Source of the DNA: Dictyostelium discoideum
Taxonomy: Eukaryota
Assembly: GCA_000004695.1 (NCBI GenBank)
Contig: CM000152.2
Coordinates: 4,480,001-4,544,000, forward strand
Reading direction: 5' to 3'
DNA: 64,000 nt
How positions within the stretch are numbered: position 1 is the stretch's first letter; each line of letters starts with the position of its first letter. Below are positions 305-52,078 of the stretch, in pieces. A program made the translations under genes and the position numbers. Below the pieces are notes generated by a model. It saw only the letters and a list, made by a program, of their open reading frames with translations. It ran no database searches and was not told the DNA's origin.

Positions 305-4393
<4,089 letters not shown>

Positions 4394-4505
4394 CTTTTTT
4401 TTTTTTTTTTTTTTTGGAGCAAATGAGAAAATTAATAAAAACTTTTTAATAAAAAAAAAAAAATAAAGAAATTAAATTAAGGTGTGTGTATGTGTTTATA
4501 ATTAC

Positions 4506-4854
4506 TCTTTTTCTGGATTTCTTATTATAATCAAGATCATTATCAATGAAATTTGGGAATTGTGGCGATTTACTACTTCTTGGTCTTAGACTAATTGTAT
4601 ACTTCCTATTATTTTGTTGTTCCTCCTCCCCCTCTTCTTCTTCCTCCTCTTCCCCCTCCTCTTGTTCTTCTTCTTCTTCTTCTTCAACCATTTCCTCATC
4701 AACATCCTCTTCTCCATACTCACTATAAGCATTCTCCTCCTCTTGTTGTTCTTCCTCATCATCATCATCTTGTTCCGTCTCAACCTCCTCCTCTTCTTCA
4801 TCTTCCTGTTGTTGATATTGTTTCTGTCTCTGCGAAGTTTGTTGTTGTTGTTGT

Positions 4855-4889
<35 letters not shown>

Positions 4890-5653
4890 TTGTATTTTAT
4901 ATGAAATATTATCATCTTCTCCCTCGTCATCATTATTGTTGTTGTTTCGATTATTATTAGTATTTTGTTTTTTACGTTGTCTATTATTTGAATGAATTTC
5001 ATCAATATCATCATCATAACCATTTAAAGTAGCTTCGAAACTAAATGATTTAGGTGGCACTCTTTGCCTTTGAGGTCTTTGAGGTTGAAATTTCTTTTGC
5101 TCTTCCTCTAATTTCATTTGTTGTTGTTGATATCTAATATGCTTTTGGTGTTGTTTATTTTGTAATTCTTGTTGTATTTGGTGTTGAAATTTCCCAAGTC
5201 CAATATTTTCTTGAGGCTGTTGTTTTTTAAGTTGTTGATTTAAAATTTTATTTTCAATACCTGTATTATCATAAATTTCAGTTTTATTCCCACCATTGAT
5301 ATTATTGTTATTATTATTATTGATATTATCATTGTTAATGGTTTTACTATTATCAATATTACTATTGGTATTACTATTATTATTATTATTATTACTACTA
5401 CTACCACCACTACTATTATTATCATTATTTTTATTATTATTTTCATTTATAAGATTATTATTACCACCACTACCAACAATATCACCAGAGTTACCTTCAG
5501 TTCCACTATTATCAGTACTTCCACCGCTATCTACATTATGTTTTCTTCTCCTATTAACAAAAGATCCATGTGAAACTGGAAAATTAACTGTAGAAATAGT
5601 ACTATTAACATATCCGATACTGTTTGAAGTTGTTATGGTAGTGGGGGGTAGGC

Positions 5654-5747
<94 letters not shown>

Positions 5748-5819
5748 TAAATCATTATTAATTATATTACTATGATTATTACCATTGTTAGTTTGTGTTA
5801 TATCATTAGTGCATTCCAT
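4506..5819 (-). CDS. ATAD2/Yta7-like AAA+ ATPase, 5' exon with the poly-N, poly-Q and acidic N-terminal region. A 112-bp intron at 4394..4505 joins it to the 3' exon.
   Basis: ORF 4446..5876 has the acidic/poly-E N-terminus typical of Yta7/ATAD2. A minus-strand GTAATT donor sits right after codon R at 4506-4508. The intron is over 90% AT and ends in an A-run plus AG at 4394-4395. Both junctions are phase 0, giving ...KSRKR|NKITTPVPRRR... in frame with the downstream ORF. The likely start is the Met of MECTNDIT at 5819; the upstream MFICFFFF is poly-T read-through. Confidence 0.6.
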
Positions 5820-5938
5820 TATTAATATGTATGAATATTTAAATGAAAAGAAAAAAAAAAAAAAACAAATAAACACACTGTGATGAAAAAAAAAAAAATA
5901 AAATTAAATTAAAAAAAATGAAAATTTAAATTCAGTTT

Positions 5939-5975
<37 letters not shown>

Positions 5976-6136
5976 CCTTTTAGGTGACATTAGCTTTATT
6001 TATATGCATTTAATAATATATTTTTGTGAATGGGTTTTTTTTTTAAAATTTCCATATAAAAAAAAAAAAAAATGCCAATATAAACAGAAAAAAAAAAATA
6101 AAAAAATATTAAAACTAAACAAATTCTTATTAAAAT

Positions 6137-6183
<47 letters not shown>

Positions 6184-6205
6184 ATTTTTATTTTATTTTT
6201 TAAAT

Positions 6206-7907
6206 TTAGTTTTTCTTTAAAATTTGAGAACTTGCATAAAAGATACAACCAATTAAATTTAAATTAATGATAATCTTTTGACCAAATACTGGAATGGTTG
6301 ATAACCATTCAAGTTTTGGATGATCTAAGAATTCTTCTCCTAAAAATGGTTTAATTGAACAAACCATTGCATTATTTCTAACGATATTATCACCAATTAA
6401 GAAAACTGATGCACCAAATGTACCAACACTAATTTCTCTAGCGCATCTAACAAGATATTGATAATGAATTTTCATTGTCTTTACACAACTACAATTTAAA
6501 TTCTCTGGATTTGCTGCTGCTTGACTTGCAACTATAATTAATTAATTAATTAATTTTTATTATTATTATTAGTAAATTTAATTTCAAAAAAATAAAATAA
6601 AATAAAATAAAATAAAATAAAATAAATTAATTGATTAATAAATAAATAAAATGTAATTACTTTCTGAATTATTTCTTTCTGGTTCATTTTCATGTTTCAT
6701 AATACTATAAAGTGCTTGAACACCACGACCACTAACAATATCTTCATATTCTAATGAGTAGTTGGTTCTTGTACTAGAAATAAATAGATTAAATAACAGA
6801 TAATTAGATTTGTTATATATATATATTACTATAAAGAGAAAGTTATTTAAAACACTAATAATAATAATAATAATGATACTTTACATTTCCTTTTCTTTAA
6901 TAATGTTTTGTAATTTTTTGAATAATTCTTGTTCACAATCATTAGTATCTGAACAAATGCTAATATGACCAAACTCTGATGGAATAACTTTATATTGATC
7001 ACCAAATTTAGTGATTAAACCTACACCTAAACCAGTACCTGCTGCTAAAACTGGGTCTAAAAATTATAATAAAAATTAAAAATAATTGTAATTATATTAG
7101 TATATATATGTATAATTATACACATTGTAGTATATACTACAAAATAAAAATAATCAAAACTTACAAACACAATTATCTGGTTGTCTTAATGGACCTGTTT
7201 GTTGAACGATAGTTGAGAAAATTGAATCTAAACCACCTTCAGACCTCATGAATGGGATGATACCATAAGCACCACTTTCAAGATCATTTAAAACTGCAAA
7301 TTTACCTGGTGGACAAAGTTTGCTTGGTAATTTCTCTGTGTAAAGGAAATTATCAGATTCAATATAGTTGGTTAATTTATACTAATTTATTAATTTATTA
7401 ATTTAAAAATAATAAAAAATAAAAAATAAAAAAAAGTATTAGAATTACATTTACAATAATATATTAAAAAAAAAAAAAAAAAAAAAAATTATATAAATTT
7501 ATAATTACTTTATTTTTTGAAAGATGTGGACCAGCAAGATCGATACAACAGAATTCTGGTTCGATAAAATTACCTAAACATTCATTTTGAATAATTGTTA
7601 ATTCTTCAATGAGTTTTGTGATATTACTGCATAAGAATTCTTTGATTGTATAATAATCACCATTTTCTGTTGCATATACTACTCTTGTATTTGTACCACC
7701 AATATCAATACCAATAAAATATTGCTAAAATTATATTAAATTAAAAAATAAAAAAATAAAAAATAAAGTTAATAAATGATTTATTTACTTTATTTTTTTA
7801 TTTTTTATTTTTTATTTTTTATTTTTAGTATACTTACAGAGTCTGTTTTTTGTTCTTCAATAAGTTTTGAGTAGTCTCCTAATACTTTATAAACCATTTT
7901 TGTTTTT
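6206..7907 (-). CDS. Glucokinase, bacterial Glk type (ATP-dependent glucose kinase). Six exons: 7848..7907, 7509..7724, 7165..7381, 6885..7056, 6661..6773 and 6206..6531.
   Basis: The spliced translation gives MVYKVLGDYSKLIEEQKTDS|QYFIGIDIGGTNTRVV...(N-terminal ATP-binding motif)...FAVLNDLESGAYGI...DPVLAAGTGLGVGLI...VIPSEFGHISI...YEDIVSGRGVQALYSIM...CAREISVGTFGASVFLIGDNIV. These match the Glk family motifs (GDVGGTNAR, INDF, GAGTGLGV, GEGGHV, SGPGL). All introns are 110-130 bp, AT-rich, start GTAAGT/GTAATT/GTAAAG and end AG. The phases are consistent: 0, 0, 1, 2, 1. Confidence 0.8.
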
Positions 7908-43793: not shown

Positions 43794-43875
43794 GTAAGCT
43801 TGCCCGAGCTGGTCTAAGGGGTTGCATTAAGGCTGCAATATCATTGATACAAGGGTTCGAATCCCTTAGCTTACA
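43794..43875 (+). tRNA. tRNA-Leu(AAG), type II, 82 nt.
   Basis: GTAAGCTTGCCCGAGCTGGTCTAAGGGGTTGCATTAAGGCTGCAATATCATTGATACAAGGGTTCGAATCCCTTAGCTTAC. It has a perfect 7-bp acceptor stem (GTAAGCT/AGCTTAC), an anticodon stem TTGCA/TGCAA with loop TT-AAG-GC, and a T-arm AAGGG TTCGAAT CCCTT. Confidence 0.85.
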
Positions 43876-45069: not shown

Positions 45070-45941
45070 ATGAATTTTTTCGATAAACTTAAAGGTGAAC
45101 TCAACTTAGGCGAGGAAGAGTTAAATAAAAAAACTATTCAAATAAGGTTATTCTACCCAAATACCTTGGAATTAAATAGTAATTCAACAAAATTAATAGA
45201 TAATTTCATAGTTAATGGTACTCTTAACATTGTCAGAAGACAAAAGGGTATAACAGTATTCGGTAGAATACTAAAAGAAAATTCACATTATTACACGAGT
45301 GTTACAGCACTTTCAAGTATGAAGATTTCCCACTGCAAAAATTCATACTTTACACCCCAGGATATCACTATGTCCACTTTTACACATTTACAAAAAACAT
45401 AATAAAAAAAATAAACAATCAAATGGTAAAAGAAAACTGGGGATTGGAGCCATTACTAATAGATGAATGCAACATAGTAATGCTACCAGATGTGATTAGA
45501 TATTCATGCATACTATTATTTAATAAAGAAGATGATATCTCAATCATTAAAACAAACATTGATGCTATAAAAGGTAGTAAGCATCCAATAAGAGCCTTCA
45601 TCTCTGAATATAACAATAAAGAAATAAGAGATGTTAGAAAAAAAAAAAACACAAGTAATAAAAACCAACAACCAACAACTACAAATACAACTAAATCAAT
45701 ACCATCAACTCCACCAACAACTAATGCATCAACAACCACACCAATAACAACCACACCAATAACAACCACACAAACAACAACCACACCAACAACAACCACA
45801 CATCAATTACCAACAAGCAATACAACAATCTACAACCTAAACAAAACTACTACTACTACTACTACTACTACAAAACCTATCAATAAAATTACTACAAGCA
45901 ATGGTACCAAGTTTCCAATTGCCAGTAGTATTAGAAAATAA
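45070..45941 (+). CDS. Retrotransposon ORF1 (two adjacent ORFs, 45070..45402 and 45423..45941, probably one ORF with a frameshift or stop).
   Basis: Its position immediately 5' of ORF2 and its T/P/N-rich C-terminus resemble TRE ORF1 proteins. Confidence 0.5.
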
Positions 45942-48900
45942 TGGAACAATTAAAATTATTACTATGGAACTGCAGAGGTAATCAATCAACCAACGCTAAG
46001 AATAAAACAGAAGAAACGATAAAAAGAATTGGCACTCAATTAGCACTCCTAACTGAAACTAATTTCAATGGATTCAACCACCACAAAACAATGTTCAACT
46101 TTGAAAGAATAGATCATGGTTCAGGTAAAGGAACTGGCATAGCAATAGAAAATAGAGATACAAGAAAAGGCCACATATCAATAAACTTCAAAGACGATGA
46201 TGGTAGAATACTATCAATTAAATACAATTCCTTTAATTCTATCAACATATTATTGATCTATGCTCCAGCGACTATATCTGAAAGAAACACCTTCATAATC
46301 AACTCAAAATCACTGTTTAAAAAATATAATTCAATCAACCATCAAATAATAGCAGGCGACTTCAATAACAACCACGATTGCAACAGCTTCTTCGGTACTG
46401 AATTACGTAAAATAATAGACCAAGACATGCTACTAGATACTGGTATTGAAGAAAACACTCCAACATTTCCAAGATCAATGAAGAGACTAGATAGAATCTA
46501 CTGTCATCCAACACTACTAAACCAAAATTCAAAACTGGTAGTCCACAACACAGTATTTAACAAATCAGATCACTTTCCCATCACAATCACAATACAAACC
46601 AACAGAGAAACAACAACAACAACAACAACCAAATTAGAAAGACTCCCTTGGACATTATGTAAAGAAATTCTCAACAACAAACATATACATGATGGGTTAT
46701 CAGAATTAATCAGTAAGAACAAAGATAAGATCAAATCAGTGGAGGAATGGACGAAATTTAAAAATAATGTCATCAGAGATTATTTTAAAAAAGAACAAAA
46801 CAAAATAAAGAAAGAAAAGAACAAAAGAAAATACGTAATCCACAAATTACTTGGAAATAGTGATATCATTCCAAAGATGAGAAAAGAACTCAATGAAGAA
46901 ATAAGTAGAATATTAGAAGAAGAAAGAAAGGTAAAAGCATGGGATATCAAATTAAAACTCCACCTGCATCAAGAAACACCAAGCAAATACCTCACAAGTA
47001 TCCTTAAATCCAGAGCCAAAGATAAATCAATATTCCAAATAAAAGATAAAGATAATAAGACCATATCAGATAAAGAGAACATAGCAAAAAGATTTGTTGA
47101 ATTCTATCAAGATCAATATGAAGAGAAAGAAGATAACGAAGAAACCCACAAGAAGTTATTAGAAAAATGGGAAGTAGACGTTGATTTAATCAAGAAACTC
47201 GAGATAGACAGACCGATAAGAATACATGAAGTGACCAAAGCAATCAAAACTTCAAGTATCCACAAATCTCCAGGTTTAGACGGTATCAATGCACTATTCT
47301 ACAAGTACCACATCAACTCAATAGCAAGAATATTGACTATAGCTTTCAACGACCTCCTCACAAATAAGAAAGAAATCCCCACAAAATTCAAAGAAGGAGT
47401 AATAACAACAATATTCAAAAAAGGAGATGAACTAAACATTTCAAATAGAAGACCAATCACCCTTCTCAATACAGATTACAAAATTTTAAGCAAAATTCTC
47501 AACAGTAGATTATTAGATATCACCAGTAAAATTATCAACAAATTTCAAAACGGCTTTGTTCCAAACAGGTTCATCCAAGACAATATTCAGATCATGAAGG
47601 AAGTAATAGAAATAAGTAACAAAAGAAAGAACAATACACTCATTACCTTTTACGATTTTAACAAAGCATTCGATTCAATCAGCCACAAGAGTATCACAAG
47701 AACATTAGAGCATATTGGTATCCCCCCAAAATTCACAGCGATCCTACTAAACCTACTCAAAGATACTAAAAACAAAATAAAGATCAACGACTTTTTAGTC
47801 AATGGAATAACAATCAGAACAGGAACAAAACAAGGAGACCCAATATCACCAACAATCTTTGCTCTAGTTTTAGAACCACTTCTAATAGATATCATCAATG
47901 ATAATACAATCAAAGGCTTCACTCTACCAAATTCCAAATCATTAAAACTCACTGCATTTGCTGACGACATAGCAACCTTTACAAACTCCACAGAAGAACT
48001 AATGAAAATTAATACTAAAATCCAAAAGTACTGCTCAGCAACGTCATCATCGTTAAACAAAGAGAAAACAGTAATGATAGCAATAGGAGATAAACCACAC
48101 GATCTACCATTCCAAGAGAGTACAGTCCCAGAAAGATATCTTGGCCTCAATTTCACCAAAACAGGTTTAAATTCAAAATACAACACTTTAATCCAAGAAA
48201 TGAAAAACAATCTAATCAAATGGAAATCACAAGCAATAACGATGAAGGCAAAGATGACAATTCTCAAAACATACGTTCTATCCAAATTAACATACCATCA
48301 ATACATGGATAATCTAAATGAAGAACAAATTGAGGAAATCAATAACATGACCAGATGGTTCTTATTCTCCTCAGTTAAGAATACATATACAGAAGAGAGA
48401 AAATACAAAACTATGATGAAAATAGACAGAGCATATGCAGATTGGAAAGAAGGAGGCATAAAATTATGGGATATAGAACTAAGACATATAGCATTCAAAA
48501 TCTGGTACATGAACAGGCTACTCCATAACAACTACAACAACAACAACAATACCTTACAAGAATGGTACATGGAGCAATTAAGTAGAAAAAAAGCCCACAC
48601 TTCAACCCTCAACGATATGTGCAGACACTGGGGTGTATTCAGAGTCAAATTTTACCAAAACCATCCAAAGATAAATGAACTTCCAGACTGTATAAGAAAC
48701 GACAATGACGAACCACTAAAACTGAAAGAAATTTACGAACTCATGATCAAAGACAGACACCCAACACCAAGAAGAACAGAATGGCAGAAGTTATGGGCGG
48801 TGAGATACAACACAGCAATACCCAAAGTATTCATAAACATCAACAGCATTTCTCACCAAAAAGGTAGAAACACCCTCTTCAGATTCTTCTCAAGATCACT

Positions 48901-49384
48901 TCCAGGTATCAACCACGAAAGAGACACCAGATGCAAGATCTGTGGCCACCTATTCAGAGACCCTTATTCTCACCTCTTCACTCTATGCCAAGATATCCTA
49001 GATATTGAAAAAACCATCATATCAACAGTTAACAAATTATCATTCATCAAAATCCACAGATGGTCAATGGATACCTTAGACATATCAAAATACAACAGAA
49101 CTGAGAGAATCTTCCCCAATCTCATAGGAATAATAGCACACCAATTATGGAAGATAATCTGTCACAAATTGTTCAACACTGATGAAAGCAAACCAGAGCC
49201 AAAATTCGAACAAAAGGTCATAGAAACAGAATTACTAAATCTCATCGAAACTGAAAAATTCATCACACTAAAGAAAATCAAACACGACGAAGCAATACTA
49301 AAAAATACAAATCAAGATCTTCACAAATACAAATTCAACAAAGCCTGGCAAACCCCAGCAGCTCCGAACCCTCTTCCAATTTAA
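45941..49384 (+). CDS. Retrotransposon ORF2 polyprotein (apurinic-like endonuclease plus reverse transcriptase), 1147 aa.
   Basis: See the element call above. There is one long uninterrupted ORF in non-AT-rich DNA. Confidence 0.85.
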   Translation: MEQLKLLLWNCRGNQSTNAKNKTEETIKRIGTQLALLTETNFNGFNHHKTMFNFERIDHGSGKGTGIAIENRDTRKGHISINFKDDDGRILSIKYNSFNSINILLIYAPATISERNTFIINSKSLFKKYNSINHQIIAGDFNNNHDCNSFFGTELRKIIDQDMLLDTGIEENTPTFPRSMKRLDRIYCHPTLLNQNSKLVVHNTVFNKSDHFPITITIQTNRETTTTTTTKLERLPWTLCKEILNNKHIHDGLSELISKNKDKIKSVEEWTKFKNNVIRDYFKKEQNKIKKEKNKRKYVIHKLLGNSDIIPKMRKELNEEISRILEEERKVKAWDIKLKLHLHQETPSKYLTSILKSRAKDKSIFQIKDKDNKTISDKENIAKRFVEFYQDQYEEKEDNEETHKKLLEKWEVDVDLIKKLEIDRPIRIHEVTKAIKTSSIHKSPGLDGINALFYKYHINSIARILTIAFNDLLTNKKEIPTKFKEGVITTIFKKGDELNISNRRPITLLNTDYKILSKILNSRLLDITSKIINKFQNGFVPNRFIQDNIQIMKEVIEISNKRKNNTLITFYDFNKAFDSISHKSITRTLEHIGIPPKFTAILLNLLKDTKNKIKINDFLVNGITIRTGTKQGDPISPTIFALVLEPLLIDIINDNTIKGFTLPNSKSLKLTAFADDIATFTNSTEELMKINTKIQKYCSATSSSLNKEKTVMIAIGDKPHDLPFQESTVPERYLGLNFTKTGLNSKYNTLIQEMKNNLIKWKSQAITMKAKMTILKTYVLSKLTYHQYMDNLNEEQIEEINNMTRWFLFSSVKNTYTEERKYKTMMKIDRAYADWKEGGIKLWDIELRHIAFKIWYMNRLLHNNYNNNNNTLQEWYMEQLSRKKAHTSTLNDMCRHWGVFRVKFYQNHPKINELPDCIRNDNDEPLKLKEIYELMIKDRHPTPRRTEWQKLWAVRYNTAIPKVFININSISHQKGRNTLFRFFSRSLPGINHERDTRCKICGHLFRDPYSHLFTLCQDILDIEKTIISTVNKLSFIKIHRWSMDTLDISKYNRTERIFPNLIGIIAHQLWKIICHKLFNTDESKPEPKFEQKVIETELLNLIETEKFITLKKIKHDEAILKNTNQDLHKYKFNKAWQTPAAPNPLPI

Positions 49385-49389
49385 GTAGT

Positions 49390-49450
<61 letters not shown>

Positions 49451-49758
49451 ATATAGTTTAAAAAATTTAATACAATTGAATAATAATAATAAAACCTTTT
49501 AACAAACACCGCTGAAAAGACACAAGGACATTCCTTGAAGGTCTGATCACAGGTAAAAAAAAAAAAAAACACCGCTTTTAGGTAAAAAAAAAAAAAAAGT
49601 TATAATATATAAATAAAAACGTAAAACTGATTTTTCGAAAAACGAAAAATTGTTTTTATATTTTATTTTTATTTTTTATTTTCGGTTTTAACAAACCGAA
49701 CTTCGTAAAGTACCAAAATACTTTACAATCCATATTTAATTTTCATTTTGCAGAAAAC

Positions 49759-50330
49759 GCACATGTCCCATGCCAAAATTAATATGGCTGCTGAAATTAA
49801 TATGGTAATTTTGGCATGGGACTTATGTCTGCTAGAATTACCACATTAATTTCAGCAGCCATATTAATTTTGGCATGCACAGACCAACTATTTTAGGCTG
49901 AAATTAATATGGCTGCCGAAATTAATATGGTAATTTTGGGCATAGAAAAATAAAAAAAAAACTCAAAGTCATTTAATTAATAATCATCTCAAATATAAAA
50001 GAATTAAAAATAATAAAAAAAAACTCATGGGATTAATTACAGTAACAATACTGATGACAAGAATAATTATAAAATAAAAAAAAAAAAAAAATCTTTTTTT
50101 ATCTTTTTATTTTTATTTCTTATTTATTTTCATGTGTTCAAAAAAAGTGGTGGTTTAAAACAATTTATTTAATTTTAAACTGTATGATTGTTTAAACAAT
50201 TTCGAAATAAGTTTCTTTAAAGAAATTCTGTATTTCTTTTTTTTATTTTATTTTATTTCATTTCATTCTATTTTTTTTTTTTTATTTTTTTTATTTTTTT
50301 ATTTTTTTATTTTTTTTTTGTATATTTAAG

Positions 50331-50424
<94 letters not shown>

Positions 50425-50426
50425 TA

Positions 50427-50470
<44 letters not shown>

Positions 50471-51573
50471 ATTACTATTATTTAATTGACCGAAGGGATA
50501 TCTTTTACTTTTTTTTTATATATAATTGTTCGAAACTTTAAAAAATAAAATAAAAAAAAAAAATTAAAAAAAAAAATATAAAAAAAAAATTAAAAAAATT
50601 AAAAAGTATTTTTTTTTTTTATTTTTTTATTTTTCCACCCGAAGATGTCGCTTTTTTGGAATTTAAAGATGTTGAATTCAATCAAAGTGATGAATTTGGT
50701 GTATTATTTAACGAAGTTACTATTGATAAAAATGATTTGAAGTACAAAGTAAATGTTGAATTTAGAGAGGCGGAGACAAGTAAAATAAATTGCAAAGGGA
50801 TATCGAAATAACCAAAAGAAAATCAACAGATGACCTAGTTGAAAAAGCAATCGAGCACTCTACCACCGAAGTTAGATCAACACATGAAGCTGCAACAACT
50901 TCCAATAATGGTGGAATCACAACTCAATCAAACAAAAACAAAACGGGTAAAAAAAGAGCTAATCAATTACAATCTGATGCTGATTTTACCAAAAGATTTT
51001 CAAACGAAACTTCATCTGTTAGTAACAAAAGAGAAAGTAGAAGAGTCAATAATTAAAATAAAAAATTAAAAAAAAAAAATTATTTTAATTTTTTTTTTTT
51101 TTTTTTTTTTTTATTTTTAATTTTTTTTTTTATTTTTAATTTTTTTTTTTGTGAGCCGTGGACATAAATGAATAATAAAAAAATATATCAACTAAAAAAA
51201 AAAGAAATGAAAATAAATTATAAAATTAATAATAAAAATAAAAAGATAAAAATAAATAAAAGATATAAATAAAATAATATGAAAATTTTTTTTTTTTTTT
51301 TTTTTATTATTATAATTATTATAATAAAAATAATAATAATAATAATTTTAGTACTAAAATTTTGTTTATATTTGAGATGATTATTAATTAAATGACTTTG
51401 ACTTTTTTTTTTTTTCTATGCCAAAATTACCATATTAATTTTGGCAGCTATGTACATGCTGAAATTAATATGGCTGCTGAAATTAATACGGTAATTTTGG
51501 CAGACATAAGTCCCATGCCAAAATTAATATAGCTGCTGAAATTAATATGGTAATTTTGGCATGGGACACGCAC
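49759..51573. mobile_element. Non-autonomous element (~1.8 kb) bounded by ~220-bp terminal inverted repeats (about 49759..49998 and 51364..51573). The interior is non-coding with an (ATT)n tract at 50335..50468.
   Basis: The left end acgcacatgtcccatgccaaaatta...ttttgggcatag...aaagtcatttaattaataatcatctcaaatataaa reappears as its reverse complement at the right end (...tttatatttgagatgattattaattaaatgactttg...ctatgccaaaatta...catgggacacgcac). Each TIR is built from 44-bp palindromic sub-units (gccaaaattaatatggctgctgaaattaatatggtaattttggc). The internal ORFs 50790..51069 are short and low-complexity. Confidence 0.6.
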
Positions 51574-51579
51574 AATATA

Positions 51580-52078
51580 AAAAATACAGGTTCAACTGGA
51601 ATTATATAAACACAAATCTTGACCTAGTCAGAACACATGCATATTGGAACTTAATCTCATTAGTTATTCACCAAATATGGATATGGTTATGCAAATCATT
51701 ATTTGACATCAATATAACTCAATCAATTGACAATTGGAACAACCAAATAAACAACACAACACTAGATTATGATATATTAAAATCAAAATGGCACAAGCTA
51801 ATAAGATTGGAATATTCAAGAACATTATCAAACTTTAACCAATACTCAATTAAAAACAACCTCACAAAAACTCAAAAAGAAACCCAATGGTCCGAAACCA
51901 TCAAAAAATTTAAAAAAGAATGGAGCATAAACACAAATGAACCAATTCCAACAATTACACCACCAATTAATTATTAATTACCTAATCTAAAATAACATAC
52001 CATTTTAAATTCACAAAAACTAAAAAACCTAAAATAAATAAATAAAAATAACATACTACAATAGTTTATTTATATCAA

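Follow-up and report, generated by a model that had tools for sequence, protein, structure and literature searches.

A Dictyostelium discoideum transposon with hairpin ends as a probable thug-S copy derived by internal deletion

What kind of element is the 1.8-kb stretch with long, structured, inverted ends that lies among retrotransposon sequences of D. discoideum, and is it anything new? Within the window, by which we mean the whole 64,000-nucleotide stretch that was analysed, this element is very probably a D. discoideum DNA transposon of the non-autonomous cut-and-paste kind, namely a copy of thug-S, and an internal-deletion derivative. thug-S is a DNA transposon family of Glockner et al. 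2001, as cited in PMC5633606 and PMC4894637; thug elements account for 0.1% of the genome (PMC5633606), and six AX4 loci appear in S4 Table of PMC4894637. The element matches thug-S in its multicopy state and in the structure of its gene model, with exon 1 in the terminal repeat and small RNAs in the intron. No difference from thug-S was detected, in a comparison based on the microRNA literature and Rfam, from which the name is taken. Its gene model makes DDB_G0281529 on chromosome 3 of AX4 the most likely annotation of this copy. The element is a routine copy of a repeat already described, with hairpins recognised as a source of microRNAs.

The element spans positions 49764-51568 (1,805 bp; + is the sense strand of its transposase remnant) and ends in TG...CA with a perfect 18-bp terminal inverted repeat. 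The same hexamer, CGCACA, abuts both termini as a 6-bp target-site duplication (49758-49763 and 51569-51574). The preliminary description had recognised a real element but placed its limits at 49759-51573, 5 bp too wide at each end; the extra bases belong to the duplication, whose presence just outside the termini it had proposed as a check and which we find to be perfect. Homology to the copies L001, L003, L004 and L005 begins and ends precisely at 49764 and 51568. All four intact D. discoideum copies examined have perfect 6-bp duplications (CGCACA, CATATT, ATTAAC and TTTGGT), and by our own arithmetic the chance of one such match in AT-rich DNA is about 1e-3. Terminal inverted repeats together with a duplication of fixed length are the marks of class II TIR transposons, and the window element has both.

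The insertion interrupts the ORF2 of a 5'-truncated TRE-type non-LTR retrotransposon, with its left part at approximately 49735-49763 and its 3' part at 51575-51977 (+). In a database search, the aligned part of this fragment showed 97-100% identity to the D. discoideum proteins P0007-P0011. Taking out the element and one CGCACA gives ...FHFAENAQYKKYRF..., the arrangement found in paralogue P0007, which is uninterrupted. The reconstructed empty site (...FNFHFAENAQYKKYRF...) agrees with P0007 and P0009, both uninterrupted, which are paralogues and not the orthologous site, and it matches the paralogue sequence INFHFAENAQYKKYRF; the predicted empty allele, with a single CGCACA, reads ...GAAAACGCACAATATAAA.... 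Since this removal rejoins the reading frame of the ORF2 fragment, which is intact in the paralogues, we conclude that the insertion is a true one. A separate TRE-type element lies upstream, with an intact ORF2 at 45941-49384 (+) that encodes endonuclease and reverse transcriptase (Pfam Exo_endo_phos and RVT_1), followed by poly(A) at 49397-49448; a tRNA-Leu gene is found at 43794-43875. The target fragment has weak similarity to the C terminus of this neighbouring ORF2, with which the empty-site peptide aligned downstream of the junction only; that alignment was not decisive, and the database search settled the matter.

Could the structure be a local palindromic duplication or an assembly artefact, with no mobile element at all? 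The inverted symmetry itself would fit such an origin, as would the restriction of its motifs to this one place in the 64-kb window, which holds no other copy of the element and no empty site (a self-BLAST of the window was swamped by low-complexity A/T matches). The probability of this explanation is nevertheless close to nil: independent copies with the same boundaries are found on other chromosomes and contigs and in other assemblies, a 6-bp duplication of its own flanks each of them, and the empty site can be reconstructed. The other copies' duplications and this reconstruction refute it. The same observations, multiple copies, duplications and empty site, bear out the initial assignment to non-autonomous DNA transposons.

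The ends, about 200 bp each, are indeed inverted copies of one another, as had been claimed: 49740-50010 and the reverse complement of 51350-51600 have a mean column identity of 83% with one 28-nt gap. The left terminal repeat region (49764-49999, about 236 bp) consists of TGTCCCATGCCAAAATTA at 49764-49781, three 44-bp units in the orientations +, - and +, and a 35-nt inner core at 49965-49999. The right one (51365-51568, 204 bp) has the inner core at 51365-51399, units in the orientations - (short), + and +, and the terminal TAATTTTGGCATGGGACA at 51551-51568. There are exactly two occurrences of the 35-nt core AAAGTCATTTAATTAATAATCATCTCAAATATAAA in the 64 kb, in inverted orientation, and six of the sub-unit motif, always within the element; shuffled sequences are expected to contain neither. 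The 44-bp units had been taken for palindromes, wrongly: each has an asymmetric 24-nt core, with two direct copies of AAATTAATATGG, between 10-nt inverted tips (GCCAAAATTA...TAATTTTGGC). It is the mutual inversion of adjacent units that produces the long hairpins. The core of the outermost unit points the same way at both ends, so that 49760-49822 and 51505-51567 form a direct repeat with 95% identity (family D8) and inversion is limited there to the 18-bp tips. This asymmetry is a feature of the family, since L001 and L003 share it. The 13-mer GAAATTAATATGG occurs 10 times in the window element, six of these in the left terminal repeat region; each end of about 200 bp holds four to six in alternating orientation (five or six in other copies), and there are none elsewhere. 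Across copies there are 10-11 per element, every one within about 170 bp of a terminus.

The related copies that the preliminary description had suggested counting were found on several D. discoideum chromosomes and contigs: on AX4 chromosomes 2, 3 and 5, and in three other assemblies. Identity between copies ranges from 88% to 96%, and their ORFs are in decay. Thug elements that have the same ends but are longer code for a protein of 469-470 residues, or more once its C-terminal tail is included. One of them, L006, is a complete element of 2,615 bp with 153-bp inverted repeats and a 469-residue rve gene (P0016); its left terminus is mutated and it lacks a clean duplication. Another, L005, is 96% identical to the window element at the left end and 99% in the tail; a 760-bp insertion splits it, and another element has cut it short. 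Near-complete autonomous thug copies are visible in recent long-read assemblies; no fully intact autonomous copy was seen among the elements examined. The rve proteins were recovered by an exhaustive representative search: P0016, P0017, P0018 and the 470-residue ORF of L005 all match Pfam rve (E around 1e-16), and none of the four gave a match to the H2C2 finger models PF17921 or PF09337 at E up to 0.1. AlphaFold models of P0018 and P0017, built on alignments of 3 sequences, had a mean pLDDT of 35 and were unusable. A profile search against solved structures gave matches to the catalytic core alone and says nothing on the N-terminal domain.

Comparison with L005 maps the deletion. Window positions 50425-50634 correspond to 5531-5762 of L005 and those from 50635 onwards to L005 from 7134, so the junction at 50634-50635 marks the loss of about 1.37 kb. 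Codons 1-451 of the transposase, and with them the start codon and the DDE core, lie in the missing stretch (approximately 5766-7133 of L005). The window element is hence derived by internal deletion from a longer thug element with the same ends, such as L005 or L006, which has the transposase that the window copy lacks; it has lost codons 1-451 and kept a decaying C-terminal tail. In protein alignment A3, three independent deletion derivatives (P0001, P0004 and P0015) are nested in the full protein. A protein search with a segment specific to L003 returned P0004 and P0015 only. The preliminary description had offered "MITE-like" and "thug/DDT-type" as labels. The first is the weaker half. MITEs are shorter than about 800 bp, carry no coding remnant and are present in high copy number; the element is 1,805 bp long with a 420-nt transposase tail, and we rejected a MITE on size and coding remnant. 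Its 1.8 kb, low copy number and transposase remnant make it an internal-deletion derivative instead. The second label can be narrowed to thug-S specifically, by exact matches to published small RNAs and a probe, their 65-nt offset and a mir-7131 match, which are described below.

The interior had been called non-coding, without a credible ORF. The reading frame is indeed broken, but 50635-51056 (+), with a stop codon at 51054-51056, is coding-derived: these approximately 420 nt are a decayed remnant of the thug transposase's C-terminal tail and share 98% identity with the AX4 hypothetical protein DDB_G0290953. In tblastn, residues 331-466 of P0016 and 351-381 of P0018 map to this interval, and protein alignment A3 likewise supports the assignment. 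The frame is lost in the window copy through a 1-nt deletion in the A-run at 50782-50785. An (ATT)45 tract had also been reported; the microsatellite is there, and we measured it as (TTA)n with 49.7 copies at 50335-50482. It is a variable passenger, absent from L001 and shorter in L003 and L005.

The databases annotate hypothetical proteins of 89-178 residues with a GT-AG intron on copies of the element, which could suggest a spliced host protein-coding gene of the DDB_G0281529/DDB_G0290953 type, flanked by repeats by chance. The first exon of these models (49784-49826, +; MAAEINMVILAWDL followed by T) is probably a prediction artefact, lying as it does within the left terminal repeat. P0001, P0002 and P0005 all start with MAAEINM(V/I)ILAWDLY, and the window sequence, with an acceptor at 50830, yields P0005 (AX4 DDB_G0281529); look-ups of the exact proteins returned no record for P0001 or P0005. 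Against a host gene also stand the lesions of the ORF, namely a frameshift in the window, a stop in L001 and out-of-frame indels in L004, and the origin of the sequence in the C-terminal tail of a transposase, in which a Pfam search found no domain. Substitutions are spread evenly over codon positions (9/5/9 and 22/25/29), and the lack of a third-position excess leads us to reject a selected host gene, an explanation that we regard as scarcely credible. Entries such as DDB_G0281529 and DDB_G0290953, now "hypothetical protein", are best read as remnants of a transposase, with a first exon that is probably an artefact within the terminal repeat. A gene model with exon 1 in the terminal repeat also explains why PMC4894637 speaks of a "miRNA in the intron of thug-S".

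The hairpins tie the element to this literature. Units 1 and 2 form a hairpin at 49779-49867 that matches Rfam RF03716, the mir-7131 precursor, on both strands. It fits the whole model (positions 1-84) with 93.8 bits on the + strand and 93.1 bits on the - strand, nearly equal scores that exceed the gathering score of 74. At the left end, whose 187 nt fold with -85.8 kcal/mol (z = -11.9), the minimum-energy stem runs from 49769 to 49877. The right end folds as two related hairpins, at 51419-51502 and 51510-51567 (-73.6 kcal/mol, z = -11.5), for which no RF03716 match was reported. Overall, the z-scores of the hairpin folds range from -9 to -12. The small RNAs of PMC4894637 sit in an alternative hairpin, in which unit 3 pairs with unit 2 on the - strand (49836-49935): both published thug-S small RNAs match exactly and on the - strand only, AUUAAUUUCGGCAGCCAUAUU at 49906-49926 and UAUGGCUGCUGAAAUUAAUGUGG at 49841-49863. 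Their offset of 65 nt equals that in S4 Table of PMC4894637, and the Northern probe from the thug-S literature matches 49841-49863 (+) exactly. Small-RNA reads and Northern signals have been reported in the literature for the mir-7131 family. Transcribed alternating sub-repeats fold into hairpins of 35-50 bp, which the DrnB/RbdB machinery cuts to 21-23-nt small RNAs (the mir-7131 family, "miRNA_can_D3"), mainly in developed cells (PMC4894637, PMC6161686). The structure of the ends had been called unusual; these multi-hairpin ends are, however, on record as precursors of microRNAs (PMC4894637, PMC6161686; Rfam RF03716). The name "mir-7131" itself found no mention in the accessible literature.

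These matches raise the possibility that the locus is primarily a host microRNA locus, with hairpins under selection for small RNAs and transposon-like features that are historical. The Rfam match and the exact published small RNAs are in line with it, as are the reported DrnB/RbdB dependence and developmental regulation (PMC4894637, PMC6161686) and the strand bias of the alternative hairpin, whose - strand stem pairs perfectly over 35 uninterrupted bp (z = -10.5) and whose + strand has two mismatches. We nevertheless think it very unlikely. The sub-repeats are found at both ends, and also in diverged or autonomous thug elements (L004 and L006), as arrays of transposase-binding sites would be. 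The mir-7131 match is present in L001 and L003, but the diverged L002 and L004 score below the threshold, and the accessible literature reports no target or phenotype. A role as microRNA source is, moreover, compatible with the transposon explanation, which we retain.

Is the element then a non-autonomous derivative of Tdd-4 or Tdd-5 (Ginger2/TDD), the integrase-encoding DNA transposons of Dictyostelium, mobilised by their transposase? The two groups have in common the host, an rve-type transposase, a TGT start and long terminal repeats, of about 200 bp here and 260-297 bp in Tdd-4/5 (PMC2836005). The rve core of the parent protein is 28% identical over 138 residues to the DDE core of a Tdd-like transposase in L005. 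Yet the duplications are 6 bp in all four copies, against 5 bp for Tdd-4/5 and the 4-5 bp characteristic of Ginger2/TDD. The thug transposase lacks the H2C2 finger expected upstream of the DDE core, which the Tdd-like neighbour has (PF17921, 33 bits), and the terminal repeats of that neighbour are made of unrelated TAAAGGTAATTT units. Ginger2/TDD termini read TGTNR; the terminal bases here are TGTCC, where TGT fits and the fifth base, C, is not a purine (the thug terminal sequence is given as TGTCCCATGCC). Long thug elements, finally, have their own transposase gene. We rejected a Tdd-4/5 derivative on duplication length, zinc finger and unrelated repeats, and consider such an origin unlikely; 6-bp duplications and the lack of a zinc finger set thug apart from Tdd-4 and Tdd-5.

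For thug-S, a transposase supplied in trans would bind the arrays of GAAATTAATATGG, cut at the TG/CA termini and, by analogy with integrases and IS481/IS3-type transposases, integrate across a 6-bp stagger. The accessible literature, which did not include the 2001 thug-defining paper or Repbase, contained no statement linking thug to a transposase, and this link may be unreported so far. If so, it would provide thug with both a mechanism and a place in a superfamily, Amoebozoa would gain a lineage of integrase-type DNA transposons that is HHCC-less, and there would be a concrete case, testable in a genetically tractable organism, of transposase-binding arrays that double as microRNA precursors. 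We tentatively suggest, with somewhat less than even confidence, that thug, until now an orphan "class", is a family with an HHCC-less rve DDE transposase and 6-bp duplications, of IS481/IS3EU/GingerRoot type in Amoebozoa and distinct from Tdd-4/5, in which the same presumed transposase-binding 13-mer arrays generate the DrnB-dependent mir-7131 microRNAs.

How does this family compare with known systems? The 6-bp duplication and the finger-less transposase point to the IS481/IS3EU/GingerRoot group, as a tentative placement by features. The members of this group have in common with thug the 6-bp duplication (PMC10045372, PMC6839031), an integrase-fold DDE transposase lacking the HHCC/H2C2 finger, and terminal repeats of 100-150 bp or more. 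TG...CA ends, as in thug, are standard in IS481 and occur in a minority of GingerRoot elements, whereas IS3EU and GingerRoot ends are mostly TA...TA. The best NCBIfam match of the thug transposase is an IS481 transposase, with 84 bits against a cut-off of 224; the Tdd-like protein also matches IS481 best (50 bits), so this match does not discriminate. PMC10045372 and PMC6839031 make no mention of Amoebozoa for this group, and a literature search for Dictyostelium together with IS3EU gave no useful pairing. As for the hairpins, microRNAs derived from MITEs exist, e.g., human mir-548 from Made1, and there too the inverted repeats of non-autonomous DNA transposons form hairpins that enter the microRNA pathway. 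The window element differs from these cases in being a 1.8-kb deletion derivative and not a short MITE, and its hairpins form within one end, from several nested inverted sub-repeats, rather than between the two ends.

The element is bounded by the termini TGTCCCATGCC...GGCATGGGACA at 49764 and 51568, and the hexamer CGCACA lies immediately outside both (49758-49763 and 51569-51574). Three further intact copies, at loci L001, L003 and L004, were retrieved from D. discoideum assemblies via the interior protein, and in all of them homology starts and stops at exactly the same bases as in the window copy. A perfect 6-bp duplication, each of its own sequence, flanks 4 of 4 intact copies: CGCACA in the window (49764-51568), CATATT at L001 (3981-5544), ATTAAC at L003 (3061-5040) and TTTGGT at L004 (3452-5188). 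In DNA as AT-rich as this, we calculate that six bases at a set position would agree by chance with a probability of about 1e-3 per copy. Removing the element and one CGCACA leaves an open frame reading ...FNFHFAENAQYKKYRFNWNY..., and AX4 DDB_G0274719 and other paralogues read uninterrupted ...INFHFAENAQYKKYRFNWNY... at this empty-site junction. Hence, the transposon interpretation of the preliminary description is supported on the two points set beforehand to refute it: the repeat is not single-copy, and the duplication is present. The insertion went into the 3' portion of a TRE-type ORF2 truncated at its 5' end. This fragment follows closely on an intact TRE ORF2 (endonuclease and reverse transcriptase) and a tRNA-Leu gene, both upstream of it; the remaining window holds ordinary host genes. 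Between the upstream TRE poly(A) and the truncated TRE start, a stretch of about 285 bp (49450-49735) contains two CACCGCT motifs, each followed by A-runs, and could be matched to no element. tRNA genes lie 1-6 kb from several thug copies (L003:2060-2134, window 43794-43875, and 906-977 at a further thug locus, L005), and the window and L005 copies sit directly in TRE ORF2 sequence. The tRNA proximity likely comes from thug tending to occupy tRNA-associated TRE clusters.

The long inverted ends proposed earlier were borne out by reading the sequence from 49400 to 52000 and by an alignment of the left end to the reverse-complemented right end (83% mean column identity, one 28-nt gap). A 35-nt core common to both ends has exactly two occurrences in the window, inverted relative to each other, and the sub-unit motif occurs six times, all within the element; shuffles lead us to expect none of either. 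The 44-bp units, however, are not palindromic as had been claimed: they have 10-nt inverted tips flanking an asymmetric core, which holds two direct AAATTAATATGG repeats, and the long hairpins form because adjacent units are mutually inverted. In the outermost unit the core points the same way at either end (49760-49822 vs 51505-51567, 95%; repeat family D8), as it also does in L001 and L003. This 60-nt unit is a self-complementary stem-loop with an 18-bp stem and equal loop orientation at both ends. Unlike the window copy, the diverged copy L004 has an outermost unit with true inverted symmetry. We suggest that the loop can flip, e.g., via recombination within the stem. The 13-mer GAAATTAATATGG is present 10-11 times per element, never more than about 170 bp from a terminus, and nowhere else in the 64-kb window; its distribution is alike in L004 and in the transposase-bearing L006 copy. 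We infer that these 13-mers are putative transposase-binding sites, and hairpin formation would then be a consequence of their alternating orientation.

This element is already on record, as are its family and its microRNA-forming ends. The small RNAs UAUGGCUGCUGAAAUUAAUGUGG and AUUAAUUUCGGCAGCCAUAUU and the probe CCACATTAATTTCAGCAGCCATA were published for thug-S (PMC4894637), in which multicopy microRNA loci have also been mentioned by others (PMC6161686). Exact matches to the two small RNAs lie on the window's - strand (49841-49863 and 49906-49926), with an offset, 65 nt, that recurs at all 6 AX4 loci of the S4 Table of PMC4894637. The Rfam family mir-7131 (RF03716, gathering score 74) matches at 49781-49867 (+, 93.8 bits) and 49779-49865 (-, 93.1 bits), and likewise in L001 and L003. 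Database gene models on thug copies start with MAAEINMVILAWDLY, encoded within the left terminal repeat (49784-49826), and splice across the hairpins, which accounts for the published placement of the small RNAs “in the intron.” With an acceptor at 50830, the window yields AX4 DDB_G0281529 on chromosome 3, for which the S4 Table has one locus (PMC4894637), so that the window copy probably represents this locus, or else the orthologous one of a 2025 assembly. The window ORF 51561-51977 and the database protein P0010 (assembly ACTFIT) do not differ.

How could these ends fold? As RNA, the left end forms a hairpin of roughly 50 bp (49769-49877; -85.8 kcal/mol and z = -11.9 for the 187-nt end) and the right end two hairpins (51419-51502 and 51510-51567; z = -11.5). 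Units 3 and 2 can alternatively pair on the - strand (49836-49935), in a hairpin that contains both published small RNAs and whose 35-bp stem is free of interruptions; on the + strand two mismatches occur, which hints weakly at the - strand being processed. The “3p” RNA of PMC4894637 lies 5' of the “5p” RNA on the same strand, both in the S4 Table and in the window (49841-49863/49906-49926, -). Either the two labels have been exchanged, or the RNAs pair separately, one in each of the alternative hairpins (units 1 and 2 vs units 2 and 3).

The preliminary description took the interior, which includes a (TTA)49.7 microsatellite (50335-50482, Tandem Repeats Finder), to be non-coding. This is not entirely so, since 50635-51056 derives from a transposase and is 98% identical to AX4 DDB_G0290953. 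The window frame is broken where the run 50782-50785 lacks one A; the DDB_G0281529 model likewise skips this region, and the 1-nt deletion is therefore probably real rather than a long-read homopolymer error. Other copies of the tail carry a stop codon (L001) or out-of-frame indels (L004), substitutions in the interior ORF are evenly spread over codon positions, and no Pfam domain was found in the window interior ORF. In L003, about 490 additional bases look coding. Its protein, P0004, was the query of an exhaustive HMMER search, which retrieved P0016 (469 aa), P0017 (382 aa) and P0018 (434 aa), all three with the Pfam integrase core (rve, E about 1e-16); their N-termini match the L003-specific segment and their C-termini the window ORF. 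The L005 copy has a thug left end that shares 96% identity with the window; downstream come a 470-aa rve ORF without interruptions (5784-7196), a nested insert of 760 bp lying exactly between ...PPEDV and AFLEF..., and 189 bp with 99% identity to window 50646-50833, where another element cuts the copy short. L006, from D. cf. discoideum, is a complete 2,615-bp element with a 469-aa gene and 153-bp inverted repeats of the thug type (92%); its left terminus is mutated and a clean duplication is absent. Missing from the window copy is thus the counterpart of L005 5766-7133 (codons 1-451). In L001, codon 9 is fused in frame to about codon 449, and P0004 and P0015 represent two more deletion derivatives, each independent. 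Thug-S therefore comprises internally deleted derivatives of an element with an rve transposase.

Other elements accompany these copies. A TIR element of roughly 750 bp is nested in thug sequence at two unrelated loci, within the transposase ORF at L005 (7149-7909) and within the right terminal unit at L002 (4063-4815). It has ends CACAGC...GCTGTG, a 2-bp flanking repeat (TC in one, TA in the other), internal sub-repeats of the TAAAGGTAATTT type and a tRNA-like stretch with no ARAGORN call, and is possibly a small non-autonomous element of DDT/Tdd type. L002 is a rearranged thug locus (3954-4868 and 5535-6415), with a solo right-end fragment containing this insertion and a second partial copy; the right terminus occurs twice, with no left terminus to match. 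Directly upstream of the L001 copy lies a 615-aa predicted gene (1720-3762) with a weak DUF5906 (primase/helicase-like) match. An element of about 4.1 kb at L005 (9086-13195), with inverted repeats of TAAAGGTAATTT units, has a transposase gene of several exons, whose product combines an H2C2 finger (PF17921, 33 bits) with an rve core; the element is probably Tdd-4 or a relative and served as a contrast to thug.

The thug-S copy is itself an ordinary, well-explained repeat, and the side result for transposon classification is modest. Dictyostelium DNA-transposon transposases have been described as lacking similarity to known ones (2017 review, PMC5633606), and we found no link between thug and an HHCC-less rve transposase in the searchable literature, a scope that leaves out the 2001 defining paper and Repbase. 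This link may be new, although we lean slightly toward its having been made before. In the thug transposase, the D, D and E residues stand in sequence contexts usual for rve (LMFDT, CDNG, GKIERWN; seen directly), and its best solved relatives are retroviral integrase cores (E = 1e-10). Its best NCBIfam model is the IS481 transposase, at 84 bits against a curated cut-off of 224, a match that does not discriminate, as IS481 is also the best match of the Tdd-like protein (50 bits). The H2C2 zinc finger had no match in P0016-P0018 or the L005 ORF. In contrast, the adjoining Tdd-4-like element has this finger, its terminal repeats of TAAAGGTAATTT units are unrelated to thug, and the two transposases share 28% identity over 138 residues only. 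Tdd-4/5 elements make 5-bp duplications, and Ginger2 transposases carry the H2C2 finger (PMC2836005), so thug departs from Ginger2/TDD in two defining features, duplication length and finger. IS481 elements mostly make 6-bp duplications and end in TG..CA; IS3EU/GingerRoot make 6-bp duplications, lack the HHCC, and end in TA..TA or sometimes TG..CA (PMC10045372, PMC6839031). With its 6-bp duplication and no finger, thug therefore fits the IS481/IS3EU/GingerRoot pattern, and we provisionally place it there by described features rather than by a tree.
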